Both the position numbers and the translations under genes were made by a program. The notes under the pieces were generated by a model that saw nothing but the letters and a program-made list of their open reading frames with translations, was not told the origin of the DNA and ran no database searches. Positions 9,808 through 41,857 of a stretch of 54,683 bases of DNA are shown piece by piece. Origin of the DNA: Minisyncoccia bacterium (lineage in GTDB: Bacteria > Patescibacteriota > Minisyncoccia > Phycocordibacterales > CAJBRS01); the NCBI GenBank assembly GCA_038215155.1, contig JBBQRF010000004.1, positions 1 through 54,683 of the forward strand. The letters are read 5' to 3'. Positions within the stretch are counted from its first letter, which is position 1; each line of letters begins with the position of its first letter.

Positions 9808-9861
9808 AAAATCTTTATTAATACTTCATGCCGGAATGGTAATTTGATACAATTATCATTA

Positions 9862-11991: not shown

Positions 11992-12044
11992 ATCTGACCC
12001 GGGTGAATTATCGAAGTCTAACTTCGTTACTATAATCCAGCGGT

Positions 12045-12106
12045 GTTGCGAGCTTGTTGCTTATCCGACTCGCCGAAGGCGACGGCGGGAAGTAACATGC
12101 GAGCGG
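12045..12106. repeat. Conserved structured element, copy 1 (strand unknown)
   Basis: gttgcgagcttg, then a 39-nt imperfect hairpin with a GAAG-type apex, then catgcgagcgg. The same flanks and spacing occur at 54395-54455. Confidence 0.6.
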
Positions 12107-12128
12107 GCCAGCGTGGAAAATTGGTTGT

Positions 12129-15718: not shown

Positions 15719-15928
15719 ATGATGAAAGATGTGGAATTTAATGAATTTCAGCCACAAAATCGGGCACCCTTGAATAAGAATTCCAGGCAAAATCAAAAAC
15801 TAAAGAGTTCATATGTAATCCTGTTAATAATTGCGGCAATTATTTTTCTTTATTTCACTTTTAATCCTAACCAAGAAAACTCGAGGAAATTTCCTCTTCC
15901 TACATCATATGTATCGAATGTTAAATAA
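15719..15928 (+). CDS. Small single-pass membrane protein (pilin-associated), unknown family
   Basis: N-terminal DVEFNEF and one TM segment (YVILLIIAAIIFLYFTF). It overlaps the start of the downstream pilin gene. Confidence 0.5.
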   Translation: MMKDVEFNEFQPQNRAPLNKNSRQNQKLKSSYVILLIIAAIIFLYFTFNPNQENSRKFPLPTSYVSNVK

Positions 15929-16427
15929 AAGAGGATTCACCTTAATAGAATTAATGGTGGTGGTGGCCATTATTGGCATGTTAAGTAGTGTCGTTCTTTC
16001 TAGTTTAAATACCGCTAGAGGAAAAGGTAGAGATGCTCAGAGGATTTCAGATATTAAACAGTTAAAAACTGCTTTACAACTTTATTACGAGGATAATGGA
16101 CAGACGTATCCAACGGCTTTAAGCGGTCTGGCGCCAAAATATATTGGTAAAATCCCTACAGATCCCTCAAGTCAGACCATTAGTGCCTTTACTTGTGGAG
16201 CTGGTAATTATTGTTATGCCTACTATCCTTCTACAAGTCCCAATTTTTATCATCTGGGTGCTAAATTAGAATTTAATAACAGTGTATTGAATTCTGATAC
16301 GGACTGTCGTAGCGATAGTGCCACAGCCGCCTGCGTGGCCGGTCAGACTACTCTAAATGGAGGGAACTTCAACGGTGCCTCAAATGGTCCTGGGGGAACA
16401 GACAACGTATATGATTTAACTAGTTAA
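15909..16427 (+). CDS. Type IV pilin/pseudopilin-like protein
   Basis: Prepilin cleavage/methylation motif KRGFTLIELMVVVAIIG. The start is 15909 or 15918; the tracker start at 15831 is too far upstream. Confidence 0.8.
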   Translation: MYRMLNKRGFTLIELMVVVAIIGMLSSVVLSSLNTARGKGRDAQRISDIKQLKTALQLYYEDNGQTYPTALSGLAPKYIGKIPTDPSSQTISAFTCGAGNYCYAYYPSTSPNFYHLGAKLEFNNSVLNSDTDCRSDSATAACVAGQTTLNGGNFNGASNGPGGTDNVYDLTS

Positions 16428-16440
16428 ATTTAATTAAAAT

Positions 16441-16743
16441 ATGTCAAACGTCGAGTTTGAAGAAGAAAACAACAACAATTCTATCTTATATAATCGCTTT
16501 GAACGGAGTGATAAAAAACCTGGAATGGTTGCTTGGCTAATTCGGAAAAATTTTGCTAAATCAGAATCCGAAGCAAATTATATGCTGCTCATCATAACGT
16601 TTTTTTGTATTCTGGCCGCCCTTTATTTTTTTCTTCATTCAACGAAAAAAAGCAATCCTATAATTTATAAGGAAGATATATCGCCAACAGATAGAGAAAT
16701 CTTACCTCCCGATACTATAAAAAGCTTACCTTCAAAAAGATGA
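16441..16743 (+). CDS. Small single-pass membrane protein (pilin-associated), unknown family
   Basis: N-terminal NVEFEEE and one TM segment (YMLLIITFFCILAALYFFL). The ATGA overlap joins it to the downstream pilin gene. Confidence 0.55.
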   Translation: MSNVEFEEENNNNSILYNRFERSDKKPGMVAWLIRKNFAKSESEANYMLLIITFFCILAALYFFLHSTKKSNPIIYKEDISPTDREILPPDTIKSLPSKR

Positions 16744-17234
16744 AAAGTTTGACTTTTAAAAAAGGTTTTACCCTAATAGAGCTATTAGTAGTTATTTCAA
16801 TTATTGGTTTATTAGCCTCTGTGGTGCTATCGAATATTAATGTGGCTCGCCAAAAAGCCTCTGATACTCAAGTACTCCAAACCCTTTTTCAGATTAAGAA
16901 CGGCATAGAGCAATACTACTCTGACAATAAAAACTTTATTACTTCAACCGTTAGTGTAGATCTGACTGCGAATGGCAACACTACAAATCCTCCCTTTGTA
17001 CCTAATTATGTGGCTATTCCAAATACTAATCCTCATTATTATATTATGCTTCCAGGTAATAGTACTTATGCTGCCAGCAAATACAATTGCGGAAGCTTGC
17101 TGGGCACTCAAAATTTTCAATCATATATAATTTTCGCTTTTTCATATGCACCTACCACCAACACTCCTGCTCAAGCCCTTTACAATAGCGGAGGCCCTTT
17201 AGCCAATTACTACTGCCTCCCAGGGCCAATTTAA
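16740..17234 (+). CDS. Type IV pilin/pseudopilin-like protein
   Basis: KKGFTLIELLVVISIIG prepilin motif. Confidence 0.8.
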   Translation: MKSLTFKKGFTLIELLVVISIIGLLASVVLSNINVARQKASDTQVLQTLFQIKNGIEQYYSDNKNFITSTVSVDLTANGNTTNPPFVPNYVAIPNTNPHYYIMLPGNSTYAASKYNCGSLLGTQNFQSYIIFAFSYAPTTNTPAQALYNSGGPLANYYCLPGPI

Positions 17235-17262
17235 TTGATTTTTCGAAGTGAATAGCTATAAT
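17235..17262 (+). promoter_or_regulatory. Sigma70-type promoter of rplY
   Basis: TTGATT-16 nt-TATAAT. The ATG lies 8 nt after the -10 box and there is no SD. Confidence 0.5.
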
Positions 17263-17270
17263 GATTCTCT

Positions 17271-17927
17271 ATGCTTACATTAAATGTGGAAAAAAGGGAG
17301 AAAAAGTTAAAACCCGAGACTATTCGTCAAAATGGCCAAATCCCTGCTGTTTTCTATGGAAAAAAAGCCGAATCAACCCCAATTACCGTTAAAGAAGTTG
17401 ATTTTCTCAAAGCTTGGAAGGAAGCCGGAGAGTCATCCGTACTTATCCTAAAAGGAGTAGGGGAGGATCATGAGGCTCTGATTCACGATATTGATCTTGA
17501 TCCAGTGACAGGAAAAGTAAGACACGCTGATTTTTACGTCTTAGAGAAAGGAAAGAAAGTAAAAGTGGGAGTTCCAATTGAATTTACTGGTATTGCTCCG
17601 GCCGTGAAAGAACTTGGAGGTACTTTGGTAAAGGTATTGCATGAATTGGAAATCGAAGCCATGCCAAAAGATTTGCCCCACGAACTTATATTGGACGTTT
17701 CAGCACTAGTAAATTTTGAATCACGTATTATTGCCAAGGATATTAAATTGCCAGCCGGGGTAGAGCTGGTCACTGATGCGGAAGAAGTAGTAGCCCTTGC
17801 TTCAGAAGTGAAAGAAGAACTGGAAGAAGAGGCGGCTCCAATTGATCTCGACTCTATTGAAGTAGAGAAGAAGGGTAAAAAAGAAGAAGAGGGCGCCGAA
17901 GGCGCTGAGGCCGCCGACGCTAAGTAA
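17271..17927 (+). CDS. rplY: Ribosomal protein L25/Ctc with acidic tail
   Basis: RQNGQIPAVFYGK and HADFY motifs, plus a C-terminal E/A-rich extension. Confidence 0.9.
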   Translation: MLTLNVEKREKKLKPETIRQNGQIPAVFYGKKAESTPITVKEVDFLKAWKEAGESSVLILKGVGEDHEALIHDIDLDPVTGKVRHADFYVLEKGKKVKVGVPIEFTGIAPAVKELGGTLVKVLHELEIEAMPKDLPHELILDVSALVNFESRIIAKDIKLPAGVELVTDAEEVVALASEVKEELEEEAAPIDLDSIEVEKKGKKEEEGAEGAEAADAK

Positions 17928-30020: not shown

Positions 30021-31253
30021 TTAGTAATTATTGACACTGATGTTCACAGAGGCATTGTTGTTTCCTCTATTAACATCATTAGTTTGATTATAAGGGTCGA
30101 GGTTGATGGTGACGCTATTGTTTGAACCATACTGCATTCCATCAAACCCAAGAATGTAGATTCGACTTTCACCGGGTGTTAGAGACGCTTGATTGCTTTG
30201 GGTCAAATTATTATTAGCATTATTACAGTTGTTTCCGTAATTATAAGAGCAGTTATTATTTGAATTCGGTAAAGTAGCACTAAAATTCCAAGAGCCGCTA
30301 GAAAGTGTTCCTTGATTAGTCACTCGGAAGCGCACCCCCGCACGGTTACCAGACGAAATATAATTAGTTTGGCTGTACTGCCCAGTGGATCGATCCACCG
30401 TACCCGTATCTATGATTTGAATTGCTAAGTCCACTCCGTTAGAAGTAATACCGCCATTATAATTTCCATAATTTCCGCCCGTGGCATTAATAGTCACTTG
30501 AGCACTATTATTTGCCGTCTGCAATTCTGGTTTATTATTACTGATGACGATTTTTACTAAACGACTTTGTCCAGTTTGAACGTAGTCAAAGTAAAGTTCA
30601 CCGCTGACGGCCATACCGGCCGGAATAGAAATTTGATTGTAAAGATTTTTGATTTGATCTGAAGGATTAACGGCGGGAAGGGCAGCAGAAAGATTCCAAG
30701 GACCCGAAGGACCGTTTCCAACATTTTCTACTTGGAATTTCACCGCTACTCGGTCATTAGTATTTACATTTGTGTTAGGAATGAAAGCGCCGGTATTACG
30801 CTCTAGGGTGCCGATGGAAGTAATAGTAACTTCTAAATCAGGGGCACCGTTATTAACAGTCCCAACGGAGTTATTAGAATTACCGGAGCTTGGGTAATTA
30901 TTTTGATTTTTGCGAGGATTGGTAGCATTGGAATTTCCGATCTGAGGATTTTCGATATGAAAGTAATTATTAGTTGTAGTTGCGCTCGGTGTAGAGACAG
31001 TAAGAGGAGTAGAGGTTGCCTTTGGTTTATTGGGCGTAAAAAGGGAAGAGATAGAAACGTTTACTGAGGCCAGAGAGGAAAGTGCCTTGGGCACTAATTT
31101 AATAATTCCAATACTTAAAACCACTAAAACCACTAAAACGGCACCTAAAATAAGAATACGCCAAACCACTCGAGAAGAAGACTTCTCCTCTTCAATAGGA
31201 AGGTTCGGAGGGATACTTTGAACTAGTAATTTTGGGTTTTTTTCTTTTTCCAT
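30021..31253 (-). CDS. N-terminally anchored surface protein with two CARDB-like domains
   Basis: TM helix, S/T/N-rich linker and two repeats: DLEVTITSIG...VENVGNGPSGPWNLSAALP and DLAIQIIDTG...VTNQGTLSSGSWNFSATLP. The ATG at 31253 is preferred because the tracker's GTG lies in the -10 box. Confidence 0.6.
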   Translation of the reverse strand: MEKEKNPKLLVQSIPPNLPIEEEKSSSRVVWRILILGAVLVVLVVLSIGIIKLVPKALSSLASVNVSISSLFTPNKPKATSTPLTVSTPSATTTNNYFHIENPQIGNSNATNPRKNQNNYPSSGNSNNSVGTVNNGAPDLEVTITSIGTLERNTGAFIPNTNVNTNDRVAVKFQVENVGNGPSGPWNLSAALPAVNPSDQIKNLYNQISIPAGMAVSGELYFDYVQTGQSRLVKIVISNNKPELQTANNSAQVTINATGGNYGNYNGGITSNGVDLAIQIIDTGTVDRSTGQYSQTNYISSGNRAGVRFRVTNQGTLSSGSWNFSATLPNSNNNCSYNYGNNCNNANNNLTQSNQASLTPGESRIYILGFDGMQYGSNNSVTINLDPYNQTNDVNRGNNNASVNISVNNY

Positions 31254-31310
31254 AGTGAGCGAATTATATACCACATTTGATTATTTGTCAAATAGACGTA
31301 TAATGCAGGG

Positions 31311-31970
31311 ATGAAATGGTATAAAGCGAAAGAAGCGCAGTTTTCAATATTCTTCCTACTCATTTTTCTAGTGACTTTTACTGGGCTTTATTTATTCGGC
31401 CTCATTCCTACTGAGCTAAAGGAAGAAGGCGGTACCAACATACTTAATCAACTTTCTCAAAACTCTATTGAAAATATTACTGGTAACAATTCCAATAACA
31501 TAGTCGCACCCACCCTGAAAGGAGAAGAGCCTCTGCGCATTCAATCAGAAAAAATTGGTCTGGATTTTAAAATCGTTAATCCAAACAGTACCAGCAATAC
31601 TATTTTAGACAGCGCCCTGACCGAAGGCGCTGTCCACTATCCCGGATCCGGTCTTCCTGGTATTGGCAACATGTTTATATTCGGCCATTCCACCGGACTT
31701 AAAGTAGTGAACAATAAGGCCTATGAAGTTTTTAATAATCTTCACAATTTAACCTCTGGCGATCAAATAAAAATTGTCACCAAGGATCATGTTTATTTTT
31801 ATACCGTCAACTCCGTTAAATTAGAGAAAGATACAAGTGCCTATGTCAGCTTCTCAACTAAAGAGAATATGCTCACTCTCTCAACTTGCAATAGCTTCGG
31901 CGCCAAGGAAGATAGGTACGTGGTGGTGGCTACTTACTCTGGAAATTCTTCTATAAAAGCATCCTCTTAA
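31311..31970 (+). CDS. Sortase-family transpeptidase
   Basis: N-terminal TM segment, IFGHS (catalytic His), LTLSTC (TLxTC Cys) and EDRYVV (Arg). Confidence 0.8.
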   Translation: MKWYKAKEAQFSIFFLLIFLVTFTGLYLFGLIPTELKEEGGTNILNQLSQNSIENITGNNSNNIVAPTLKGEEPLRIQSEKIGLDFKIVNPNSTSNTILDSALTEGAVHYPGSGLPGIGNMFIFGHSTGLKVVNNKAYEVFNNLHNLTSGDQIKIVTKDHVYFYTVNSVKLEKDTSAYVSFSTKENMLTLSTCNSFGAKEDRYVVVATYSGNSSIKASS

Positions 31971-31987
31971 GATTTCTCTCAAAAACT

Positions 31988-32016
31988 TTGACTTATCACA
32001 TTAAATGTGGTAATAC
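31988..32016 (+). promoter_or_regulatory. Sigma70-type promoter, cassette 1
   Basis: TTGACT-17 nt-TAATAC with TGg immediately upstream of the -10 box. Confidence 0.6.
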
Positions 32017-32061
32017 TCGGGTAGAAATAGATTTTCGACAACAAAAAACAAAGGAGAAAAA

Positions 32062-33774
32062 TTGAATCAAGTTACTCGATTTCCCGCACCCTTAACAGGG
32101 AAGGGAGCAGAAAAAGCAAAAGAATTGAACCAGAGGGTTCGCCCTCGGACAAATGACTGGGACGGTAAGCGGAATCCTCAAGACAACGGTCTCCTCTTCG
32201 GAGATTCTTTACGTGTTGTTGGACCACTCGATGGTTTTAAAGGGCGCGGTTTGGAGGGCAAATTTGAAGTCGGGTTTTTAATCTGGCTCGGCCAAGTTTT
32301 TGGTAATGTCTCTCGAAAAACAGGCATCGGTAATTTCTTAACCAAAGATATTACAAACATTCACGGTGAAGTAACTTCAGTGGAGGGTAGCGGAAACGGT
32401 TTCCTTACTCCTGTCGATGTCACTTATTGGGGCGATAAAGAACTAATCAACCTACTCCTTAATGGTTATTCGGCTGAAGACTTCCAAACTTTCGCCGAGA
32501 TTCCTGTAGAGGAGTGGAATAAATTCATCATCGCTAAAGCTGGTAGTTTTTGGAACCTATATCTTTTGGCTGAGAAAGCCTTCAAGGATCCTAAACGAGG
32601 CGGCTACAACGAAGATGTTAAAGCCTTATACGATACAGCAAAAAAAGAACTGGAGCGCACTTGGAAAATAGCCCGTCAACTGAAACTGGTTTCAAATCTG
32701 GATCAAGCGACGACAGCAAGTTTTGAATGCCCGCCGGAACTCGAGCATAATTTCTACGAGAAATCCAAGGAAATTGCCGAGGAATGGAAAAAAAATGGTC
32801 TTACAAACTTCATTTCTGGTCCGGTAGAGGTATTGAAATATCCGAATGGCAACGTTCGAAAAATTCAAGCCAAGTATGCTGATTTGGACTTTCGTTCGGA
32901 CGAGGAAAAGAATTTTGAGTTGCCACCCGAACCAATAATTCGGTTACGCACTCCGAAGGAATTCTGGGATGAACTCTGCCTGCCAATGAGTCAGAGTGAA
33001 CATCGCCGACGATTAGGTGAAAATCGGAAAATCGAGAGAAAAAATCTTCGCCTAGCAGCAGAAGGTAAGCCACTCCACCCACTTCTTCCGATTAAACGAT
33101 TTCGGCGCGTGCCGGAAAAGCCGATTTGGAGAGGGGAGGAACTGTGGATGGTGCCGATTGTTCCTATGGAGGGGCAGGAAGAAAGGCTACTCTCGATGCC
33201 TAAGGTAAAGCACGAGACTGATGAAGAATATGACAGCCGAATGTATCGACGCAAATGCATTGTTAAGCGTCGGTATCTTTGGAAAGAGGGCTTCTATCTA
33301 TCAGTTCCAATCTATGCCAAAACCGGGGAGATCATTCCTCTGGTAACGCCACCTCGTGAATCAACTCCAAAATTTACCCCGCAAGAGGTGATTGAGTTGA
33401 TATCGAAGAACGACTTGAAGAATCGAAAGGACATTGAAACGTTCTTCGAAAATCAAATCCCTCTTGAGCCAGTCCTCAGTGAGAAAGCTAAGAAAGAGCT
33501 CGAAGCAGAAATGAAACCTTTGGTTGAAAGACCGAACAAAATTTCTCCAGTTGTTTCGACTGTTTCGCCAAAAGTAGTTAAACCCTCGGCATTAAAAGCT
33601 TTGAAGCCGAAAGTGGTAAAACTCGAGACACACCAAGAAAAGTTCGAGTCGCCCCAACCAGATTCGCCCACAAGGATTACTCCTGAGGGAAATATGGCAG
33701 AGGATGAGACTCGGAGAAAATCGGGATGGTGGTCTAAATTTCAGGATATTTACGGCCCATCTGACCCTCGTTAG
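32062..33774 (+). CDS. Hypothetical 570-aa soluble protein with K/P/V-rich tail
   Basis: TTG start 7 nt after aaaggag. No TM segment, signal peptide or known motif recognised. Confidence 0.6.
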   Translation: MNQVTRFPAPLTGKGAEKAKELNQRVRPRTNDWDGKRNPQDNGLLFGDSLRVVGPLDGFKGRGLEGKFEVGFLIWLGQVFGNVSRKTGIGNFLTKDITNIHGEVTSVEGSGNGFLTPVDVTYWGDKELINLLLNGYSAEDFQTFAEIPVEEWNKFIIAKAGSFWNLYLLAEKAFKDPKRGGYNEDVKALYDTAKKELERTWKIARQLKLVSNLDQATTASFECPPELEHNFYEKSKEIAEEWKKNGLTNFISGPVEVLKYPNGNVRKIQAKYADLDFRSDEEKNFELPPEPIIRLRTPKEFWDELCLPMSQSEHRRRLGENRKIERKNLRLAAEGKPLHPLLPIKRFRRVPEKPIWRGEELWMVPIVPMEGQEERLLSMPKVKHETDEEYDSRMYRRKCIVKRRYLWKEGFYLSVPIYAKTGEIIPLVTPPRESTPKFTPQEVIELISKNDLKNRKDIETFFENQIPLEPVLSEKAKKELEAEMKPLVERPNKISPVVSTVSPKVVKPSALKALKPKVVKLETHQEKFESPQPDSPTRITPEGNMAEDETRRKSGWWSKFQDIYGPSDPR

Positions 33775-33783
33775 TAAATACTT

Positions 33784-33813
33784 AGCGTTGCGCCCCCGCG
33801 CAACGCTTTTTTA
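33784..33813 (+). terminator. Rho-independent terminator, cassette 1
   Basis: agcgttgcgc-cccc-gcgcaacgct followed by tttttt. Confidence 0.8.
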
Positions 33814-33819
33814 TTTATA

Positions 33820-33848
33820 TTGACACAGTTTTATATTTATGCTAAAAG
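33820..33848 (+). promoter_or_regulatory. Sigma70-type promoter, cassette 2
   Basis: TTGACA-17 nt-TAAAAG with TGc extended -10. Confidence 0.55.
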
Positions 33849-33870
33849 CAGGGGTAGAAGTAACTTAAAA

Positions 33871-35400
33871 ATGGAAACAATTACCGAAAAATCAGAAAGA
33901 TTCGATCAACTACTAAGCACTTCAACCACTTCCAACGGAACCAAAATTCCCAAAAAAGGTTGGTTGCAGAACCGCAAAGAAAGAAAGATGACCGCAGAAG
34001 AGAAACGTCTTCGCGAGGAGAGAATGATTGTGGATTTTGCGCTCGATCCGGGCACCGGAAACACTATCATAATTCCCTTAAATCACGACGGTTCACTCGA
34101 TCTGGGTAACATGTTCGATGAGCCCTCTGTGATTATTTTGAAATCTAATCGTCAGGGGGACGAGTCGCGCTACGAGCGTATCGCGGCGATTGGGAATATG
34201 GCTAAGCCACTCATCAACCAAATCTCCGATGATTCATGGACGAGCGGCTTCAGAACCCTTCAACCAATCGTCGACGGCTTGATCCAACATGACGTGGAGA
34301 CGGCTGCTATGTGGAAAATGTGTCTCGATAAGGTTTGTGAAAAGATGGGCCTTAATCCGAAAGCCAAGCGCAACCTAATCATTACAGTTCCTCTGGGGTT
34401 AACTCCTCTTCAGGAGAAGACAGTGTCTGATGTAGCCATGATGGCTGGAGCGAACGAGGTTGAAATCGTCAGCCAAGTTTTCTGCGCCGTCTTAGGAGGA
34501 GGATTGTATGATCCCAACACTATCGAACCGACCTTCGGTATCGATATCGGACACGGCACGTCGCAGCTTCTTTTGTTTACCGGATCCGGTACTCTTAAAG
34601 TTGAGGCGGTTCAAAATGCAGGGGGTGGTTATTACACCGAGGCTCTACAAACCTACCTGCTAAAGACATATGGGTTTCAACTTGATCCACTCCGGGCGGA
34701 AAAGGTAAAAATTCAAATCGGAGCCGCAATGTTAAAGGAAGGAGAGGAAGATATTGGAATGACGGTCCCGGCCATCGACAAAAAAACCGGAAAAGGTGGA
34801 AACATCTTCATACGTCGATCCGATACCGTCGAAGCCTTCCGCTTTCTGAATGAAGAATTGGTTCTGAACATTCGAGAAGTTTGCAATAAAGCCCCAAACG
34901 GCCTGGTTGCTGATTTTTCGGACGAGGAGAAACCCTGTTCATTCTTTTTGGGAGGAGGAGGCACCTTGCTCCATAATCTTGACGAGTATCTTCGTCTCGA
35001 GCTGAATTATCGGGTACTGCGAGTGCACGATCCACTTCACGCTATTGCAATCGGAGCGGCTAAGATAATGGCCAACTCTAACCTGCGACCCTTCCATGCT
35101 CGGAAGCCATTTGAATGGCCGACGGAAACGGACCCTTGCCCGTTTTACGTACTTCGGAAATCTGCTGGATTTAAGCGAGTGAAAACCCGCATGGAAAGAA
35201 GGGGGAGTCGCTGGGCTTTCTGGCGTCGAGATCCGATTCCAGTTCGAATTGCCACGAATCCGACCGACATAGCAAACGTTATCTCGAAACACGGGAAAGC
35301 CTATCTCGAAAGGATTGGAGAATATACCCGGGGTAATTTTTGGGAAATCGTTTTTCCCAAGCAAGAGGTAGCCGCGGGAATAGTACAAAACCGGACTTAG
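33871..35400 (+). CDS. Divergent MreB-like actin-fold ATPase with N- and C-terminal extensions
   Basis: Alignable by eye to MreB: LDPGTGNT (phosphate 1), PIVDGLI, ITVPLGLTPLQEKT, IDIGHGTSQ (phosphate 2), LGGGGTLLHNLDEYL (adenosine), VHDPLHAIAIGAAK. The tracker's TTG start is the -35 box, so the ATG at 33871 is used. Confidence 0.75.
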   Translation: METITEKSERFDQLLSTSTTSNGTKIPKKGWLQNRKERKMTAEEKRLREERMIVDFALDPGTGNTIIIPLNHDGSLDLGNMFDEPSVIILKSNRQGDESRYERIAAIGNMAKPLINQISDDSWTSGFRTLQPIVDGLIQHDVETAAMWKMCLDKVCEKMGLNPKAKRNLIITVPLGLTPLQEKTVSDVAMMAGANEVEIVSQVFCAVLGGGLYDPNTIEPTFGIDIGHGTSQLLLFTGSGTLKVEAVQNAGGGYYTEALQTYLLKTYGFQLDPLRAEKVKIQIGAAMLKEGEEDIGMTVPAIDKKTGKGGNIFIRRSDTVEAFRFLNEELVLNIREVCNKAPNGLVADFSDEEKPCSFFLGGGGTLLHNLDEYLRLELNYRVLRVHDPLHAIAIGAAKIMANSNLRPFHARKPFEWPTETDPCPFYVLRKSAGFKRVKTRMERRGSRWAFWRRDPIPVRIATNPTDIANVISKHGKAYLERIGEYTRGNFWEIVFPKQEVAAGIVQNRT

Positions 35401-35412
35401 CTCTTTCACACC

Positions 35413-35441
35413 CGCCGCAGATGCAAATCTGCGGCGTTTTT
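35413..35441 (+). terminator. Rho-independent terminator, cassette 2
   Basis: cgccgcagat-gcaa-atctgcggcg followed by ttttt. Confidence 0.85.
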
Positions 35442-35476
35442 ATTTGCCCGGCCTAAGCTGCTATGGAGGGACATCC

Positions 35477-35505
35477 TTGACTAAGACCAATAAATGTGAT
35501 AATGA
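35477..35505 (+). promoter_or_regulatory. Sigma70-type promoter, cassette 3
   Basis: TTGACT-17 nt-TAATGA with TGa extended -10. Confidence 0.55.
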
Positions 35506-35549
35506 GAAGGAAGATTTCAACCCAAAAACACACACAAAGTTCTTAAAAA

Positions 35550-36422
35550 ATGAAAATAATACTGACGATTCTTATTCTGTTTATCCTTGGAACAATCATT
35601 GGTCTCTCGGTGGCGATTTATCGTCTTGGCTGGCCAAAGTTTGTGGAAGAAGTGATTCACTTCGCAATCATCCTTCGTCGCTTAAAGTGGCGATTACTTC
35701 TTCGGCATCTCGGAATGGTTGCTCTTGTAATCTGCACCCTCGGATTTATTCTGAACTATCTTCCTAGCACTGTCTGCTTCGGCTGGCGCTGCTTGAAAGA
35801 AAATGCGGATTACTTTCTGGGCTACAATCATGTGGTCACCGAACTTCACAAGGAGCGCGATAATCATTACGCGCTCAGCAAGGAGCTGGATCGGAAAGAA
35901 AATGAGAAGCAAGCTTTGCTAAAACAAAGTGAAGAGTGGCAAAAAGCTTTTCAAACAGCTGAACTTTCGGCGGATAAATCAACGATTCGGCAAACCGAAC
36001 TGGAAGATAATCTTCGGAGCTCACAGCACGTTGCTGACAATCTGCGGGGGGAAAAGACCAAACTTCAGCAATCTCTCGTCCAAAAAGACAAAGACATTGC
36101 TGAGGTAAATCGAAAACTCGTGGAAAAGGAGGGAGAAATAGAAAGACTGGCCAAAAAAGACGCAGAAAAAAGGCAGTCTGAACTTGCTCAAAACGGCGAG
36201 AGTCATTGGTGGTCAGATTGGTTTAACAAAGAAACCAAAAATGAATCTGCAAAGGTTAGTCCTTCATCACCACCAACCGTGACGGCAATACCTCCAAGCC
36301 TTCCTTCGGATCCTGTCTCGAATATTGACGAAACAGAGTTAATTCAAGCCTCTGTGAAGAATGCCCGTTTGAAACTGGCCCTCATCGAGAAGACACTTAG
36401 GGAAAAAGGTTACAGCGATTGA
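35550..36422 (+). CDS. Membrane protein (2-3 TM) with a long coiled coil
   Basis: The hydrophobic N-terminal 90 aa are followed by about 130 aa of heptad-rich E/K/Q sequence and an S/P-rich segment. Confidence 0.6.
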   Translation: MKIILTILILFILGTIIGLSVAIYRLGWPKFVEEVIHFAIILRRLKWRLLLRHLGMVALVICTLGFILNYLPSTVCFGWRCLKENADYFLGYNHVVTELHKERDNHYALSKELDRKENEKQALLKQSEEWQKAFQTAELSADKSTIRQTELEDNLRSSQHVADNLRGEKTKLQQSLVQKDKDIAEVNRKLVEKEGEIERLAKKDAEKRQSELAQNGESHWWSDWFNKETKNESAKVSPSSPPTVTAIPPSLPSDPVSNIDETELIQASVKNARLKLALIEKTLREKGYSD

Positions 36423-36446
36423 GTGCCCTCGGCTCAATCGTTTTTT
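36416..36446 (+). terminator. Rho-independent terminator, cassette 3
   Basis: cgattgag...ctcaatcg followed by tttttt. The stop codon lies inside the stem. Confidence 0.75.
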
Positions 36447-36460
36447 ATTTTATCGTTACT

Positions 36461-36489
36461 TGACTTTTGAATAAAAGTATGCTAAATAT
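36461..36489 (+). promoter_or_regulatory. Sigma70-type promoter, cassette 4
   Basis: TTGACT-17 nt-TAAATA with TGc extended -10. Confidence 0.6.
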
Positions 36490-36558
36490 TGAATAGGTTA
36501 GATAGTTCTGGGCATAATGTCTGGAGCGCCTAAAAACAAATTCCTCAGAAAGGGGATC

Positions 36559-37149
36559 ATGAAGAACAAAATAAAAATCTATTTATTGGTTATTGCGGTT
36601 ACTTTCGTCGGCGTCAATTTGACCTTCGGTCAATCGCCGTCGTCACCTCCGGGGTCAATCAGCCCTAGCAGGGGTATAGCCAGCGCGTCTCCTAAAGGAA
36701 GCGCTGCCTCAAAGTCTACACCCCGTCCTGCGGTCTCACCGAATCCCTCCACAGCCGGGAACGGTAGTCAAATAAATGCGGATGCCAATACCTGGGCTGA
36801 AATCGTCGACACCTTGGGTGAGAAAACCAAGGCGTCCTTGAAGGAGAAGGACGACAAAATCGCCGACCTCGATCTTCGAAATAGTTCGATTATCAAGGAG
36901 AAACAAGATCTCGAAACCGAGAAGCTTAATCTCGAAACAAAGGTTCGGGCTCTGGAACAAGGACAAAATGGCGTAGATAAGCGAGTTAAAGCGATCGAAA
37001 AAGAAAGGGATGAGGCTAAAGCAGCTTTCAAGACCATCACCGACGCCTTACGCAAGGTCAATAACGACAAAGAGTTAGCAGTCGGAGTTGACCCCACGAA
37101 AAAAGGTTCGGCATTACCTCAGGTCGTGGACACACGGCCGTCCAACTAG
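36559..37149 (+). CDS. Secreted S/P-rich coiled-coil protein
   Basis: Signal-peptide-like MKNKIKIYLLVIAVTFVGVNLTFG, an S/P-rich linker and a coiled coil (DLETEKLNLETKVRALEQ). The ATG at 36559 follows aagggga. Confidence 0.6.
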   Translation: MKNKIKIYLLVIAVTFVGVNLTFGQSPSSPPGSISPSRGIASASPKGSAASKSTPRPAVSPNPSTAGNGSQINADANTWAEIVDTLGEKTKASLKEKDDKIADLDLRNSSIIKEKQDLETEKLNLETKVRALEQGQNGVDKRVKAIEKERDEAKAAFKTITDALRKVNNDKELAVGVDPTKKGSALPQVVDTRPSN

Positions 37150-37163
37150 GAGGTCAGTTAAAT

Positions 37164-37200
37164 AACAGGCGTTATGGAGTAATCCTAGCGCCTGTTTTCT
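37164..37200 (+). terminator. Terminator, cassette 4
   Basis: aacaggcg...cgcctgtt (8 bp, 17-nt loop) followed by ttttct. Confidence 0.6.
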
Positions 37201-37206
37201 TTATAC

Positions 37207-37235
37207 TTGACAATTATCTTAAGGTGTGCTAATAT
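37207..37235 (+). promoter_or_regulatory. Sigma70-type promoter, cassette 5
   Basis: TTGACA-17 nt-TAATAT with TGc extended -10. Confidence 0.6.
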
Positions 37236-37302
37236 ACTGATAAATGGTTCTACCCAGAACCCCATTCACACAGCAGTAAACCTCAACGAAAGGAATCAGA
37301 AA

Positions 37303-38034
37303 GTGAAAAAGTTCATTAACATGTTAGTTCTCATCAGTTTGTTTGGAATGGCGGCAGCTCACGGCTTTGGCCAAGAGTTAACCCCTGACCAAGCGGTGGC
37401 CCAGCTCGATGCGCTGGCAAAAAAAGCAGCTAAGGCTGATGCCTCCGAAAAGGAGAATCAAGCCTGGAAAGCAAAGGTAGGAGCAGTCCTCGGCACTCAA
37501 TCGAAGGCCGCATCTGCTTCTTCCCCATCAGCAGCCCCAGCGTCCGTAACGACTGCCTCAAATTCGGATCTGCGTGCGCAGATCGAAGCTCTCAATAAGA
37601 AAAACGAAGAGCTTGAATTAAAGGTGAAGGAAGCGCCTGTAAAAACAGCGGGAAATGCTCCAAGTGATTCGCCCAGTGTCGATCGGCCAGAAATGTCGGA
37701 AGGCAATAGTGGTGCAATACCAGCCTCACTGACGGACACCCGAGCCCTCAGCAATCGTCAGAAAGCGGAGAAGCTCGAAGGAATGTTGAAGAGCCAAGGG
37801 CTCCTCAGCAATGGTCGGCTAGCGACCAGCGATTCAGTGCTCCGATTCTGTGTAGCAGTGCCGGGCGTCAATGCCTGCATTCCTCACGATCGGATGAATC
37901 ACGTCTTCCGGTTCGCCGACATGTCGGCCGATCAAGGAATTCCAGACAGCGTGGTAGGGGAGTATATCCACCGCCACCATCTGCAGGTGCACTTGCGGTC
38001 CGAAAGTCCTGCCCCTCGAATGGCGCGGAACTAA
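37303..38034 (+). CDS. Secreted A/S/P-rich protein with a short coiled coil and a Cys/His-containing C-terminal domain
   Basis: GTG start after gaaaggaa. Signal-peptide-like KKFINMLVLISLFGMAAAHG, coiled coil LRAQIEALNKKNEELELKV, C-terminus FCVAVPGVNACIPHDRMNH. Confidence 0.55.
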   Translation: MKKFINMLVLISLFGMAAAHGFGQELTPDQAVAQLDALAKKAAKADASEKENQAWKAKVGAVLGTQSKAASASSPSAAPASVTTASNSDLRAQIEALNKKNEELELKVKEAPVKTAGNAPSDSPSVDRPEMSEGNSGAIPASLTDTRALSNRQKAEKLEGMLKSQGLLSNGRLATSDSVLRFCVAVPGVNACIPHDRMNHVFRFADMSADQGIPDSVVGEYIHRHHLQVHLRSESPAPRMARN

Positions 38035-38044
38035 CAAAAACCCG

Positions 38045-38079
38045 GTGTGAATATTAGGTTCAATCCCTTTTATTCACAC
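38045..38079 (+). terminator. Weak terminator hairpin, cassette 5
   Basis: gtgtgaata...tattcacac (9 bp, 17-nt loop). The downstream T-run is poor (tctttgtattt). Confidence 0.4.
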
Positions 38080-38118
38080 TCTTTGTATTTAGTAGAACGT
38101 TGATATTAAGAAGCATAC

Positions 38119-38147
38119 TTGACTTTTCATAAAGGTTAGTGTATAAT
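38119..38147 (+). promoter_or_regulatory. Sigma70-type promoter, cassette 6
   Basis: TTGACT-17 nt-TATAAT. Confidence 0.65.
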
Positions 38148-38177
38148 GCTGATATTAATTATTTAAGAAAAAATATT

Positions 38178-39602
38178 ATGAAAAATTTATTCAATTTAAT
38201 CCTTCCAAAGATTGTGCCAGCAATTGTAGTTTTAATCTTGGTCGGAGGAGTTTTCGGAGTTAGTTTCGCCTTTCCTTCAAAGGCAAATGCTCAATACTTC
38301 GACGGCGGCCTAGATTACGGCGGCTTCGATTATTCAGGCGGTACTTATGGAAGTGACGGCCTAGATTATGGCGGTTTCGATTATGGCAGCGGCGGTTACG
38401 GTGATAGCTTTAGTAACTATGGCTACGGAGACAATTCTGGTTATGGAAACTACGGTTATGGAGATAACTCAGGTTACGGATCTTATGACCCTTGTAGCTA
38501 CGGTTGTTACGACAACAACTCTAGTTACGGAGACTATGGAAATTCAGGTTGTGATTACGGTTGCAACGATAATAACTCAAGTTATGGAAATTATGGATGT
38601 GATAGCTGTAACTCTTATGGTAACTATGGCGGTAATCAAGGATCTTATGGTTGCAACAGTTGTTACACCCCTCCTCCTTATCACCCAACCACCACTTACC
38701 ATCCTCCAGTAACTAATTCTACTCCAGCTACTATTCACAACACTAATACTAATAACAATAATAATTTCTCTAATTCTAATTCTAGCTCCAGTGCTACTGC
38801 TATTAATAACAACACTGTTATTATTAATACTCCAGCCGGTAACAACAATACCACCGAAGCTCCAAACTTAACTGCTTATTGTGTCGCTAATCCATCAAGT
38901 CCTATTGTAGGAAATGTTGTAAATTGGCAAGCAAATGCTAGTGGTGGAAATGGAAATTATTCTTACTCTTGGAATGGTGATGTCTACGGAAGTGGTTCAA
39001 GCGTTTCAAATACTTACTACAACAGTGGTACTCGAAATGCTAACGTAACTGTGACTTCCGGTGGGCGACAAGTCACCGCCAGCTGTTCAGTAAATGTTCA
39101 GCCAAATGGTGCTCAAGCGGCTTTCACTACGGTCTATCAGCAACCAACTGGTACTCCTAGCGCAGGCGTCTTCTTAAGTCAGATTCCAGCAACTGGCATC
39201 AGTATGAATCTTAAGATGGCTCTATTCGGACTAGGATTAGCAATGTGGAGCGCCTTCGGAGCCTACATGATTCTTCAGAAGAAAAAGTTGGCAGTTCTAG
39301 CCGTTGCAGGCATCAGCGCTTCAGAGATGGAAGCTGAGGAAATCACTGCTCCAGAAATGGAAGAGGAAGTGATGGCTCCAACTGAAGTAACTTCAGAGGA
39401 GTTTGAAAACAGTCTTTCTTTCATGGCTCGCGAAAACAATGTTCTGATCTCCCGAGATGGCTTAAATACTATTCTCGCTCGAGTTGGAACTGATAAAGTG
39501 GCTGGCGAAAATATGCTTAACACTCTTATCGGCAAAGTTTCTCGAAATGATGGAAACTACGCTACTCTCAACTCTGAGAAAATTGAAAAACTATTAGCTT
39601 AA
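38178..39602 (+). CDS. Surface protein: signal peptide, G/Y/D/N-rich repeats, PKD-like domain, IPATG+TM+KKK segment, acidic cytoplasmic tail
   Basis: MKNLFNLILPKIVPAIVVLILVGG...ANAQ; GLDYGGFDY and NYGYGDNSGYG repeats; WQANASGGNGNYSYSWNGD (PKD-like); SQIPATG, hydrophobic stretch, QKKK. Confidence 0.65.
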   Translation: MKNLFNLILPKIVPAIVVLILVGGVFGVSFAFPSKANAQYFDGGLDYGGFDYSGGTYGSDGLDYGGFDYGSGGYGDSFSNYGYGDNSGYGNYGYGDNSGYGSYDPCSYGCYDNNSSYGDYGNSGCDYGCNDNNSSYGNYGCDSCNSYGNYGGNQGSYGCNSCYTPPPYHPTTTYHPPVTNSTPATIHNTNTNNNNNFSNSNSSSSATAINNNTVIINTPAGNNNTTEAPNLTAYCVANPSSPIVGNVVNWQANASGGNGNYSYSWNGDVYGSGSSVSNTYYNSGTRNANVTVTSGGRQVTASCSVNVQPNGAQAAFTTVYQQPTGTPSAGVFLSQIPATGISMNLKMALFGLGLAMWSAFGAYMILQKKKLAVLAVAGISASEMEAEEITAPEMEEEVMAPTEVTSEEFENSLSFMARENNVLISRDGLNTILARVGTDKVAGENMLNTLIGKVSRNDGNYATLNSEKIEKLLA

Positions 39603-39607
39603 TAAAA

Positions 39608-39650
39608 ACGAAAAAGGCCGGGCGCGAGAAACGCGCCCGGCCTTTTTCGT
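39608..39650. terminator. Bidirectional terminator (cassette 6 / thrS)
   Basis: acgaaaaaggccgggcgcg-agaaa-cgcgcccggcctttttcgt. Confidence 0.88.
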
Positions 39651-39653
39651 TGT

Positions 39654-41414
39654 CTATTTTCTTTCTATTATTTCTTTATTAAATTTCTCTAAAACTTCAT
39701 CAATACTCAGGGCGCCCAAATTACCATTATCACGGCTCTCGAGAGTAACTGTTCCTGATTCTATCTCTTTATCACCAATGACCAAGAAGTAGGGAATTTT
39801 CTCAATTTTTGCCTGGCGGATTTTTTTCCCCAAGCTTTCATTACTACCATCGAGCTCCACTCGAAAATTTTCTCCTTGTAATTTCTCGTAAACTATTTTT
39901 GCGTAACTTTGATGAGTTTCGCCAATGGGCAAGACTTTTACTTGAAGAGGGGAAAGCCAGAGAGGAAAGGCTCCTGCGAAGTGCTCTATAATTATAGACA
40001 TGAATCTCTCTAGAGAACCGGCTACAGCTCGATGAATCATGACGGGTATTTGTTTAGAACCATCATTGGCAGTGTATTCAAGCCCAAAACGAGAAGGCTG
40101 AACAAAATCAATTTGAGCCGTAGCAAGTTGCCATTCTCGATTCAAAGCATCTTTAAATTTAAAATCTAATTTAGGACCGTAAAATGCAGCTTCACCTTCC
40201 ATTCTTCTAGCGTTGAGACCGAATTCATCTGAAATTTCCTGAAGATATTGTTCTGCCTTATTCCAATTTTCTTCTTCTCCTAAATATTTCTCAGGAGTCT
40301 TGGGGTCGCGGACTGATAAAGAAACCCAAAAACTTTCTCCTTTCTTCCACATTCCTAAGGCACTATAAAACTCTTCAATAATCCGCACGATATTTCCAAC
40401 CTCGTCTTTAATTTGCTCTGGAGTGGTAAAAATGTGAGCATCATCAATAGTGATAGATCTGACTCGCGACAAACCTAAAAGCTGGCCTGGTTTCTCATCG
40501 CGATATTGCATAGTGAGTTCTGTGTATCGAACTGGTAAATCCCTGTAACTTCGAGGTTTGGCTGCGTAAATTTGAGTATGGTGAGGACAATTCATTGGCT
40601 TCATCACAAATTCTTGATTACTCTGAGCTCCATGGACGTAGAAAAATTCGTCTTTAAATTTCTCGGCATGACCACTAGTTTCGTAGAGAGTCAGTTTAGC
40701 AATATGGGGAATGGAGACTTTTTGGTAGCCATATTTTTTTGAAAGTTGCCAGAGAAAATCAGAAATGTTTTCTCGCATAGCTTGGCCCCGAGGGGTAAAG
40801 AGGGGAAGGCCCGGACCTACTAAATCAGAAAAAGTAAAAAGATCTAATTCGCGTCCCAATTTTCGATGGTCACGTTTCTCTGCTTCCTCTTGCTGTTTAA
40901 GATAATTATCGAGGCCATCTTTATTTTCGAAAGCTAGACCATAAATTCTAGTGAGCATCTTATTTTTTTCATCACCACGCCAATAGGCTCCGGCGAGGTG
41001 GGAGAGATGGAAACCTTGTGGATCGATAAGCTCAAAATTTTCCACGTGTCCTCCTCGACAAAGGTCGGTGAAATTTCCGGAAGTATAGAGTGTAATTTTC
41101 TCACCCTTCTTTTCAATTTCATCAATTAACTCGAGCTTATAGGGGTTATCAGTAAAAAGAGCCCTCGCTTCGCTCGGGCTTACTTCTTTGTGAGAGAAAT
41201 TTTTCCAAGTAGGAAAAATTTCTCTCATCTTTTTCTCAATCTTTATCAAGTCTTCTTCAGCAACGGGCGAAACAAAATCAAAATCATAATAGAAGCCATT
41301 ATCTACGGCGGGGCCGATGGTATTTAAAGCATCCGGATATAATTCCAAGGCAGCAGCTGCCAACAGGTGAGCTAGTGAGTGTCGAATCTTAGCTAAATGG
41401 TCTACTTCAGTCAT
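39654..41414 (-). CDS. thrS: Threonyl-tRNA synthetase (no TGS domain)
   Basis: HSLAHLL, HRKLGRELDLF and MNCPHH motifs, plus a C-terminal anticodon-binding domain. Confidence 0.9.
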   Translation of the reverse strand: MTEVDHLAKIRHSLAHLLAAAALELYPDALNTIGPAVDNGFYYDFDFVSPVAEEDLIKIEKKMREIFPTWKNFSHKEVSPSEARALFTDNPYKLELIDEIEKKGEKITLYTSGNFTDLCRGGHVENFELIDPQGFHLSHLAGAYWRGDEKNKMLTRIYGLAFENKDGLDNYLKQQEEAEKRDHRKLGRELDLFTFSDLVGPGLPLFTPRGQAMRENISDFLWQLSKKYGYQKVSIPHIAKLTLYETSGHAEKFKDEFFYVHGAQSNQEFVMKPMNCPHHTQIYAAKPRSYRDLPVRYTELTMQYRDEKPGQLLGLSRVRSITIDDAHIFTTPEQIKDEVGNIVRIIEEFYSALGMWKKGESFWVSLSVRDPKTPEKYLGEEENWNKAEQYLQEISDEFGLNARRMEGEAAFYGPKLDFKFKDALNREWQLATAQIDFVQPSRFGLEYTANDGSKQIPVMIHRAVAGSLERFMSIIIEHFAGAFPLWLSPLQVKVLPIGETHQSYAKIVYEKLQGENFRVELDGSNESLGKKIRQAKIEKIPYFLVIGDKEIESGTVTLESRDNGNLGALSIDEVLEKFNKEIIERK

Positions 41415-41436: not shown

Positions 41437-41467
41437 CCAAAATAAAATCGAACACTTAAGTGTTCGA
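41437..41467 (-). terminator. Terminator of the 41456-41857 orphan gene
   Basis: Perfect 20-nt palindrome tcgaacactt|aagtgttcga with the stop codon at its apex. It is followed on the minus strand by ttttatttt. Confidence 0.7.
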
Positions 41468-41857
41468 CGTAAGCACTCCCTTCGAGGATAACCGAGTTTT
41501 GATGAAGCCCATTATCTCATCGAGAATCAGGCTATTTTCTGGGGAGAGGAAAAGGTCTCTTCGCCAGCATTCCATGCAATAGCTGTCTAACTCGTTTTCA
41601 AGTTTAGGGGATCTAACCTGAATGAACCCATAAAACCGAAAACCGTTCAAAGTAAGAGATATTTGCGAAGAATGAGCGGGTGGGCTATCCCAATTAAACC
41701 GCATATTGCTCAAGGCAGGAATTCGTTCAGCCATTTCGTCTTTTAGATGATAAAAAAGCTCTTGCCAAATTTCGTCATCTTGAGGAAGGGGAATGTTCTC
41801 ATCAAACATTCGAACAAGGATGGCTCTAAAGAGCTCGGGAAAAGAGTTTAGTAACAT
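41456..41857 (-). CDS. Hypothetical protein (orphan)
   Basis: 133-aa ORF with its own promoter, an agagg RBS and its own terminator. No recognisable motif. Confidence 0.5.
   Translation of the reverse strand: MLLNSFPELFRAILVRMFDENIPLPQDDEIWQELFYHLKDEMAERIPALSNMRFNWDSPPAHSSQISLTLNGFRFYGFIQVRSPKLENELDSYCMECWRRDLFLSPENSLILDEIMGFIKTRLSSKGVLTSNT

Follow-up and report, generated by a model that had tools for sequence, protein, structure and literature searches.

The window examined here is the whole 54,683-nucleotide stretch of contig JBBQRF010000004.1, chromosomal DNA of a member of the Paceibacteria (Candidate Phyla Radiation (CPR)/Patescibacteria). Between a sortase gene and the gene for its predicted substrate, c6, the window carries an orphan, compositionally distinct island of five genes, c1 to c5, found in one small Paceibacteria sublineage. 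The second gene encodes a divergent actin-fold protein of the MreB family. Judged from the sequences, a role of the island in the cytoskeleton or envelope is plausible, and the five products may together form an actin-anchored trans-membrane envelope structure beside a surface-protein locus, a reading to which we give slightly less than an even chance. The MreB-family fold is known; what is new is the syntenic orphan set of five genes, centered on an actin and with novel partners.

The island in a second genome

The adjacent threonyl-tRNA synthetase (ThrRS, encoded by thrS) was scanned against GTDB species representatives, which gave 65 loci. In six related genomes (L001, L006-L009 and L020), tblastn found the dnaE-thrS...gyrB backbone conserved and c1 to c5 absent from the syntenic gap between thrS and gyrB. 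This gap measures 0.4-4.9 kb in those genomes, compared to 9.7 kb in the window. A sortase gene is found in L001, L005 and L011 and a c6-like gene in L001, L003 and L011.

The sole other carrier of the island is a Paceibacteria genome (L066, GCA_017881075.1), which was not among the 65 loci; the same block is also found as Logan contig L067. The genes of L066 follow the order of the window: a CARDB-like gene (minus strand), the sortase gene, genes for proteins of 655, 487 (MreB-like), 240, 194, 277 and 483 aa (L1 to L6), thrS (minus strand) and dnaE (minus strand). The spacing of the block and its site, between the sortase gene and the c6 homologue, are the same in L066 and L067 as in the window. 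The transcription signals recur as well. For each of the six L066 genes, a GC-rich hairpin with a T-run is followed by TTGAC(N)-N16/17-(TGn)TAnnnn. The box of the first gene reads TTGACT-N17-(TGG)TAGCAA, and the counterpart of the c6 promoter is TTGACA-N16-TATAAT with the same TAGTGTATAAT core. The initial annotation had raised the possibility of synteny across related CPR metagenome-assembled genomes; order and grammar are indeed the same in L066, but the set is missing from the six genomes above.

The proteins of the locus differ widely in their conservation between the window and L066. Identity is 80% for DnaE, 61% for the sortase, 54% for ThrRS, 53% for the CARDB-like protein and 43% for c6 and L6. 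For the island, it is 36% over 490 aa between c1 and its counterpart at 7894-9861 (E 3e-73), 29% between c2 and its counterpart P0003, and 25%, around the helix only, between c3 and its counterpart at 11637-12359. Neither c4 nor c5 has a BLAST match in L066. In shuffle tests, with controls at z 1.9 or below, c3 and L3 scored z 6.3 overall, the juxtamembrane segment and helix scored z 6.6, and the coiled coil scored z 0.9. Conservation falls from inside the cell to outside: it is best in the predicted cytoplasmic proteins c1 and c2, is found in the juxtamembrane segment and helix of c3, and is about nil in the secreted c4 and c5. This gradient fits external parts that are under diversifying pressure or have been replaced.

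Composition and origin

The GC content of third codon positions (GC3) is 0.43-0.54 in c1 to c5 and averages 0.374 +/- 0.035 (maximum 0.451) in native genes. The window’s highest GC (0.54) and GC3 (0.54) are both those of c5. By leave-one-out codon-usage likelihood over 44 genes, c4, c5 and c2 are the most atypical (z -4.7, -4.5 and -2.6), and c3 and c1 score z -2.1 and -1.6. High expression was considered as the source of the GC3 values and rejected, since neither GC3 nor codon usage is unusual in rpsB, tsf and rplY. The same contrast is seen in L066, with GC3 of 0.49-0.61 in L1 to L5 and 0.40-0.49 in the flanks. A recent one-off insertion, suggested by the GC3 anomaly and by the absence of the genes from L001-L009, was rejected because L066 has the same block and the same anomaly. 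Synonymous sites would equilibrate before proteins reach 30% identity, so the anomaly would come either from a gene-intrinsic bias or from divergent alleles repeatedly imported from a GC-richer pool at the same site.

No integrase, att-like repeats, iterons or direct-repeat arrays were found in 31200-39700, and library scans of the locus returned no integrase, replication, conjugation or phage structural genes. With tblastn, c1 found nothing in 50,697 phage records or 72,556 plasmid records, and c2 found generic MreB only (29% identity or less overall, 24-28% in the phage records). A weak PHROG match of c2 (phrog_22570, E 3e-16) was seen, and a viral fold library returned Hsp70-like matches only. 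A defense-system, phage or plasmid origin was rejected, as the PHROG, PADLOC, phage/plasmid and viral-fold searches gave it no support.

Promoters, terminators and spacing

The six plus-strand open reading frames of the initial annotation are present, and its description of their signals was borne out. Exact matches to TTGAC[AT]-N17-TAnnnn precede all six genes (Table 1). TGn stands directly before the -10 box in five of the six cassettes; at 38119 the sequence is GTG-TATAAT instead. Markov shuffles gave 3.5 +/- 1.9 matches to the motif, compared to 9 in the entire window, both strands included. Of these 9, six lie in the six short intergenic regions in the correct orientation, a seventh precedes a divergent gene for an N-rich protein, and all five TGn-bearing versions fall inside the module. 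A good -35 box is missing from most other genes of the window. Downstream of each cassette gene stands a hairpin whose tail is T-rich (dG -13 to -39 kcal/mol), the terminator of c5 being the weakest of the six and that of c6 being shared with thrS. Gaps between the cassettes are 91-153 bp, versus mostly -29 to +72 bp, with a few larger gaps, for other gene pairs in the window. The start codon of c1 is TTG, with an AAAGGAG Shine-Dalgarno sequence 6 nt upstream.

By these signals, c1 to c5 (31988-38080) are five separate predicted transcription units, each with a strong sigma-70-type promoter (a full -35 box, a 17-nt spacer and a TRTGn-type -10 box) and its own intrinsic terminator. Separate strong promoters and terminators would let each component have its own expression level. 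The spacer of the c1 promoter also holds a palindrome, CACATTAAATGTG (31993-32005), and a kin sequence, AATAAATGTGATAA, lies in the c3 promoter (inverted-repeat pair). These could be an operator or merely the context of the TRTGn extended -10 box.

Table 1. Positions of the island genes, their flanking genes and their predicted signals in the window (dG, folding free energy in kcal/mol)
Feature	Position	Strand	Remark
Sortase gene, 219 aa	31311..31970	+	Pfam Sortase E 1.3e-20; upstream boundary of island
c1 promoter-like box, TTGACT-N17-(TGG)TAATAC	31988..32016	+	motif match
c1, 570-aa soluble orphan protein	32062..33774	+	predicted cytoplasmic; sole homologue in L066
c1 intrinsic terminator, 10-bp stem, TTTTTATTT	33784..33807	+	dG -17.3
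c2 promoter-like box, TTGACA-N17-(TGC)TAAAAG	33820..33848	+	motif match
c2, 509-aa divergent MreB-family actin-fold protein (predicted ATPase)	33871..35400	+	Pfam MreB_Mbl
c2 intrinsic terminator	35413..35436	+	dG -18.5
c3 promoter-like box, TTGACT-N17-(TGA)TAATGA	35477..35505	+	motif match
c3, 290-aa membrane protein	35550..36422	+	hydropathy and composition
c3 intrinsic terminator, overlapping stop codon	36415..36441	+	dG -13.0
c4 promoter-like box, TTGACT-N17-(TGC)TAAATA	36460..36488	+	motif match
c4, 196 aa, Sec-type signal peptide	36559..37149	+	GGGGA Shine-Dalgarno ahead of ATG 36559
c4 intrinsic terminator, tail TTCTTTATA	37164..37196	+	dG -19.9
c5 promoter-like box, TTGACA-N17-(TGC)TAATAT	37207..37235	+	motif match
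c5, 243 aa, Sec-type signal peptide	37303..38034	+	hydropathy and composition
c5 terminator-like hairpin, AT-rich stem, weak T tail	38044..38080	+	dG -15.5
c6 promoter-like box, TTGACT-N17-TATAAT, without TGn	38119..38147	+	motif match
c6, 474-aa G/Y/N/S-rich surface protein with sorting signal	38178..39602	+	native to locus
20-bp perfect bidirectional terminator hairpin, common to c6 and convergent thrS	39607..39651	.	dG -39.1

The MreB-like actin

Sequence matches and a predicted structure indicate that c2 has an MreB-family actin fold, in line with the initial annotation of an MreB-like protein with long extensions. Against Pfam MreB_Mbl (PF06723), c2 scores 138.3 bits (cut-off 27, E 3.4e-40) over profile positions 3-321 of 327, and P0003 scores 154 bits. 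The best PDB sequence matches of c2 are MreBs (E about 1e-32). It falls below the NCBIfam MreB cut-offs, with 140.7 bits versus 365.75 for TIGR00904 and 141.8 versus 293 for NF010539. The core covers residues ~53-415, between a 52-aa N-terminal extension and a C-terminal extension of ~95 aa. In the AlphaFold2 (AF2) model, the core (~50-415) has a predicted local distance difference test (pLDDT) score >90, and the extensions have low confidence. A Foldseek search of the PDB with this model gave MreB structures as all 25 of the top 25 matches, at target-normalized template modeling (TM) scores of 0.80-0.92, with the caveat that the multiple sequence alignment used for the model consisted of MreB matches. 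The range 0.87-0.92 is that of Thermotoga maritima and most Caulobacter crescentus MreB entries, and Geobacillus MreB is also near the top. Weaker matches were Spiroplasma MreB3 and MreB5 (ranks 21-25), followed by BeeR, MamK, actin and DnaK.

The phosphate-1 (DxGTxN), phosphate-2 (DIGxGT) and adenosine (GGGG) motifs are retained in c2, but both conserved glutamates are replaced by glutamine. The reference MreB motifs are EEPMAAAIG, in which the Glu is catalytic, and DIGGGTTE (Glu/Asp). The corresponding segments are SQVFCAVLG and DIGHGTSQ in c2 and DQPMAAAIG and DIGGGTHQ in P0003. Among the 150 top matches of c2, the Glu column of EEPMAAAIG holds E in 110 and Q in 22, and the column of DIGGGTTE holds E or D in 136 and Q in 10. 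One of the two glutamines is aligned to the catalytic Glu of MreB, and the substitutions suggest that c2 hydrolyzes slowly. Two indels are common to c2 and P0003 alone: the ‘GRTP’ loop is longer by 5-6 residues, and 1 residue is inserted ahead of phosphate-2.

An exhaustive phmmer search with c2 against 1.84 billion representatives gave 2,594 matches at E ≤ 0.001. The top non-self match was P0003 (487 aa, 31% identical, 129 bits), the remaining matches were ordinary MreBs, and nothing matched the extensions. The identity of c2 to any MreB is only 25-31%. Neighbor-joining grouped c2 and P0003 as sisters in 99 of 100 bootstraps, and both of their branches are long (0.81 and 0.68, versus a median of 0.41). 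Long-branch attraction is a caveat for this grouping, and orthology is settled by gene position. Word-index homologue searches with c1, c2 and a c2+P0003 profile returned the query alone, and scans of contig collections (c2 in IMG/VR, P0003 in metagenomes and IMG/VR) found no relatives. Other long MreB-like matches were considered as further members and rejected, being either canonical MreBs with mreCD/PBP2 or proteins from an unrelated context. The canonical MreBs P0055 and P0059 (L070 and L071) adjoin mreC/mreD/PBP2/RodA, and the context of L069 is unrelated. These canonical neighbors underline that c2 and P0003 stand outside the elongasome context.

Overall, c2 resembles MreB/Mbl/MreBH (PF06723; 1JCE, 4CZJ, 7ZPT) in its fold, its family-level sequence match and its nucleotide motifs. 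It differs from MreB proper in having Gln for Glu, indels that only P0003 shares, long extensions, a monocistronic gene (predicted), atypical codons and an occurrence in two genomes only. Its neighborhood also differs: as the initial annotation had noted for the surroundings of c2, no mreC, mreD, rodA or PBP2 gene is found in the 54.7-kb window, and the same is true of the 21-kb L066 locus.

The other island proteins

Hydropathy and composition mark both c1 and c2 as soluble. The product of c1 contains no hydrophobic helix and ends in a basic, Pro-rich tail. It has no match in Pfam, NCBIfam, PHROG, PADLOC or the PDB, which agrees with its earlier description as a soluble protein without a placeable motif. 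A c1+L1 profile found nothing among PDB sequences even at E 10, and scans of GTDB genomes, JGI metagenomes and IMG/VR contigs found no relatives of c1. A bactofilin-like repeat, considered from the G-rich impression of residues ~66-125, was dropped as it lacks Pfam support.

In c3, two hydrophobic helices flank a basic loop and are followed by a long charged coiled-coil region, which is probably extracytoplasmic, and an S/P-rich stretch. Its library matches are weak and of coiled-coil type only. c4 consists of a signal peptide, an S/P-rich linker and a coiled coil, also with weak coiled-coil-type matches. Both c4 and its positional counterpart L4 have weak matches to the same region of the Pfam DUF3450 profile (E 7.5e-4 and 1e-3). 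In addition to its signal peptide and a coiled coil, c5 has an S/P/A-rich linker and a small domain at the C terminus. Hydropathy and the weak coiled-coil matches are in keeping with the architectures first proposed for c3, c4 and c5. Beyond coiled-coil noise, c3 to c6 have no family match in Pfam, NCBIfam, PHROG, PADLOC or the PDB. The PADLOC defense models gave such noise against JetC/PbeC for c3 and c4, and no match for c1, c2, c5, L1 or L3 to L5. The partners of c2 were called unrecognizable in the initial annotation, and they remained so in these libraries, none of which placed them in a phage structural or other known family.

The sortase and its substrate

The initial annotation treated c6 as the sixth member of the module. 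This does not hold, and the set is better described as five genes plus one. c6 is predicted to be the native substrate of the sortase encoded at 31311-31970, the two being the ancestral pair of the locus beside thrS and lying outside the island. The sortase is thereby paired with c6 and not with the actin. This assignment is made because the sorting signal is conserved, because homologues of c6 adjoin thrS or the sortase gene without c1 to c5, and because its codon usage is native (z +0.15, GC3 0.34). Hydropathy and composition give c6 a signal peptide, a stretch rich in G/Y/N/S and, near the C terminus, a hydrophobic helix. Its sorting signal, LSQIPATG-ISMNLKMALFGLGLAMWSAFGAYMIL-QKKK, combines the motif with the hydrophobic helix and basic residues. 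LSQ(I/V)P(A/Y)TG with a hydrophobic helix and basic residues is likewise present in the c6 homologues beside thrS in L001, L003, L011 and L066, and the homologue of L001 directly adjoins the sortase gene. Of the earlier description of c6, the G/Y-rich character stands, the PKD-like domain has no Pfam support, and the supposed membrane anchor is a sortase-type sorting signal.

The pair is like known pairs of sortase and LPXTG substrate in having a sortase-domain gene and (I/V)P(A/Y)TG, a hydrophobic helix and a basic patch. Unlike typical LPXTG proteins, the c6-type substrate runs ~105-165 residues past the basic patch; in c6 itself, the extra cytoplasmic tail beyond the sorting signal is ~105 aa. 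This range covers c6, L001 11803-13719, L011 7259-8830 and L066 14252-15703. The tail forms a conserved cytoplasmic C-terminal domain of the family (e.g. ...LSFMARENNVLISRDGL...SRNDGNYATLN...), which is unusual for LPXTG-type proteins, and sortase cleavage would be predicted to leave a cytoplasmic fragment anchored in the membrane. A second sorting-signal protein of 381 aa is encoded at L066 4452-5597, upstream of the CARDB gene. It reads ...LSHVPSTG followed by a helix and ends soon after; over its final ~55 residues it shares 72% identity with the sorting region of c6, and it has no counterpart in the window.

A 417-aa N-rich protein with an N-terminal membrane helix is encoded at 30021-31274 (minus strand), divergent from the sortase gene; its promoter, at 31291, matches TTGACA-N17-TATAAT perfectly. 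In the L066 counterpart of this protein, CARDB domains are present (E 2.7e-11). The presence of this N-rich/CARDB-like protein beside the sortase makes the whole neighborhood a surface-protein locus.

Comparison with known systems

In PilM-PilN-PilO-PilP, GspL/GspM and FtsA with FtsL/FtsB, a cytoplasmic actin fold is held by the N-terminal peptide of a bitopic coiled-coil protein, and PilMNOP-type systems have additional bitopic or secreted coiled-coil partners outside. The likeness of c2 to c5 to such systems, seen in the conserved juxtamembrane segment and helix of c3, is one of architectural logic only. PilM_2, PilN, PilO and PilP gave no match to c2 to c5 at E up to 0.1 or to L2 to L5 at E up to 1, and no pilus ATPase, platform or secretin genes lie nearby.

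The initial annotation had compared the locus to crenactin/arcadin and to the Spiroplasma MreB/fibril systems. Spiroplasma MreB1-5/fibril and crenactin/arcadin are likewise cases of an actin homologue outside the classical elongasome with lineage-specific partners, but the analogies found no support in sequence or fold: fibril-, arcadin- and crenactin-like sequences were not found, and the nearest relatives of c2 are bacterial MreBs. For ParM/Alp, there is no ParM-type family match, no centromeric repeat array and no plasmid relative beyond generic MreB. MamK is also more distant, since c2 scores 27.3 bits against NCBIfam NF040964 (cut-off 400) and its Foldseek target-normalized TM score of 0.78 is under that of MreB. 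A literature search for actin-like or cytoskeleton modules of CPR bacteria gave nothing relevant.

The phage ‘moron’ is a single gene with its own promoter and terminator and a deviant composition, placed between other genes. Like morons, c1 to c5 each have a predicted sigma-70 promoter, one open reading frame, an intrinsic terminator and a composition unlike that of their neighbors. Unlike morons, they are chromosomal with no prophage, stand five in tandem, and are conserved as a set in a second genome.

A possible actin-anchored envelope structure and its alternatives

We treat c1 to c5 as one unit because they share their composition, are present or absent together, keep the same order and grammar, and show a conservation gradient from inside to outside. 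As an actin-anchored envelope structure, they would work as follows. c2, which keeps its nucleotide-binding motifs, would join its soluble partner c1 in a filament or scaffold on the cytoplasmic side of the membrane. c3 would tether this scaffold through its basic cytoplasmic juxtamembrane segment, which with the adjoining helix is the only conserved part of that protein. Its coiled coil would extend out of the cell, and c4 and c5, both Sec-secreted coiled-coil proteins, may join it there. In its logic, such an assembly would be like PilM/PilN/PilO or MreB/RodZ/MreC, although the tests for membership of those families failed. Several points weigh against this reading. The contacts among the five products are ones that we infer, and five independent promoters and terminators are unexpected for stoichiometric subunits of one machine. 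The extensions of c2, which are its candidate partner-binding parts, and the tail of c1 are not conserved relative to L066, and a single-sequence AF2 model of c1 was unusable (pLDDT 36.5). In the shuffle tests, the similarity of c4 to L4 (z 2.4) and of c5 to L5 at L066 13264-14097 (z 3.7, 2/300 shuffles) was marginal. Also, only two genomes carry the set and their flanks are syntenic too, so the conserved order may reflect inheritance and is not independent proof of coupling.

Instead of one machine, the island could be a mixture of hitch-hiking genes in a gap between sortase and substrate that is a hypervariable spot for surface proteins. c3 to c5 would then be fast-evolving secreted or membrane coiled-coil proteins, adhesin- or wall-associated and under diversifying selection. 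c1 and c2 would have come in alongside, either as a cytoplasmic pair unrelated to the others or as two genes unrelated to each other, and the cassettes would have independent functions. Such a spot would suit genes that are each a self-contained predicted transcription unit, and the locus is indeed rich in surface proteins (the CARDB-like N-rich protein, the sortase, c6, and in L066 the extra sorting-signal protein). The content of the gap between thrS and gyrB varies among relatives along with its length (0.4 to 4.9 kb), and c4 and c5 are nearly undetectable between genomes whose DnaE proteins are 80% identical. However, one compositional anomaly extends over all five genes in both genomes, the five are either all there or all missing, and neither order nor grammar differs although the sequences have diverged to 29-36% identity or below. 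The conservation of c3 solely at the juxtamembrane segment and helix also suggests a constrained cytoplasmic contact. We consider a mixture unlikely, though it deserves to be taken seriously.

Another explanation, which we judge very unlikely, is a highly derived elongasome in which c2 is the lineage’s MreB and wall synthesis is guided by c3 to c5 as unrecognizably diverged functional counterparts of RodZ, MreC and MreD. In architecture, c3 to c5 roughly recall MreC and RodZ, two bitopic proteins whose domains are coiled-coil or extracytoplasmic; MreB is the closest match of c2 in sequence and fold; and an actin gene followed by genes for membrane proteins resembles the mreBCD order. Yet neither c3 to c5 nor L3 to L5 match the Pfam MreC or MreD families even at E up to 0.1-1, RodA and PBP2 were not found in the 54.7 kb, and the canonical MreBs from the same search (L070 and L071) do have mreC/mreD/PBP2/RodA beside them. 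A core shape gene would not be missing at the syntenic site in six related genomes, would not have foreign codon usage, and is not expected at 29% identity where DnaE is at 80%. The replacement of both conserved glutamates in c2 points the same way. A highly improbable alternative is that the genes are the remnant of a mobile element (a plasmid, phage, or integrative and conjugative element), with a segregation actin of ParM/Alp type, now domesticated or decaying in the chromosome. The foreign composition in both genomes, the patchy distribution, the moron-like cassettes and the weak match of c2 to phrog_22570 would be expected of such a remnant, but the locus has no integrase, replication, conjugation or phage structural genes and no att-like or iteron/centromere repeats. 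The family nearest to c2 is MreB and not ParM, Alp or MamK, and the phage and plasmid tblastn searches, IMG/VR and the viral fold library all lack close relatives. Long intact open reading frames kept in two genomes also argue against decay.

A more specific form of the actin-anchored structure, which we regard as quite unlikely, is that c1 to c5 are a self-contained actin-based trans-envelope apparatus of ultra-small episymbionts, used for host attachment or cell-cell contact and horizontally exchanged as a block. A slow-hydrolyzing MreB-derived filament and its 570-aa partner would then be coupled by a bitopic protein to fast-evolving extracellular coiled-coil fibers.

Other genes of the window

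ThrRS (39654-41414, minus strand) is a mosaic when compared with its L066 counterpart (15726-17474). Identity is about 53-82% over residues 1-180, for the most part exceeding 65%, and about 57-75% over residues 460-586; in the catalytic core (200-450) it is only 20-50%. The adjacent DnaE is mostly 70-97% identical. The pattern suggests that, in one of the lineages, thrS has undergone replacement or recombination at the level of a domain. A recombination breakpoint in thrS running into the island was considered and rejected, as the divergent part is the internal catalytic core and not the island-proximal end. Between thrS and dnaE lies a 133-aa open reading frame (41456-41857, minus strand) without a Pfam match and with atypical codon usage (z -2.0). 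It has no counterpart in L066, in which 186 bp separate thrS from dnaE.

Two type IV pilin-like genes with a prepilin N-terminal methylation motif (15831-16427 and 16740-17234, plus strand) lie ~15 kb upstream of the island. A 1486-aa protein encoded at 209-4669 (plus strand) has YadA-head repeats (E 3.6e-32) and a C-terminal endosialidase-chaperone domain (Peptidase_S74), making it a surface fiber of trimeric-autotransporter or tail-fiber type, and its codon usage is atypical (z -2.1). The general gene content of the window is not unusual. It includes gap, rpiB, rpe, tkt, fba, rplY, a prfA-like gene, rpsB, tsf, pheST, gyrB, thrS, dnaE, rnhB, nusB, rnc, smc and rnr.

Significance

As a rule, few bacterial proteins are as strongly conserved as MreB, and its role is bound to the elongasome of wall synthesis. 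c2 is an MreB relative that has left this context and travels with four proteins of no known family. Even if the five proteins do not cooperate, the island is a clean natural case of moron-like single-gene cassettes outside a prophage, and the locus shows extreme rate differences within one chromosomal neighborhood. If they do cooperate, they would be a new actin-based system beside ParM, MamK, AlfA, the Spiroplasma MreBs, crenactin and BeeR. A trans-envelope apparatus, if real, would be a new class of bacterial actin system without recognizable partner families. A cooperating set would also give a handle on how CPR/Patescibacteria organize their envelope or their contact with the host.

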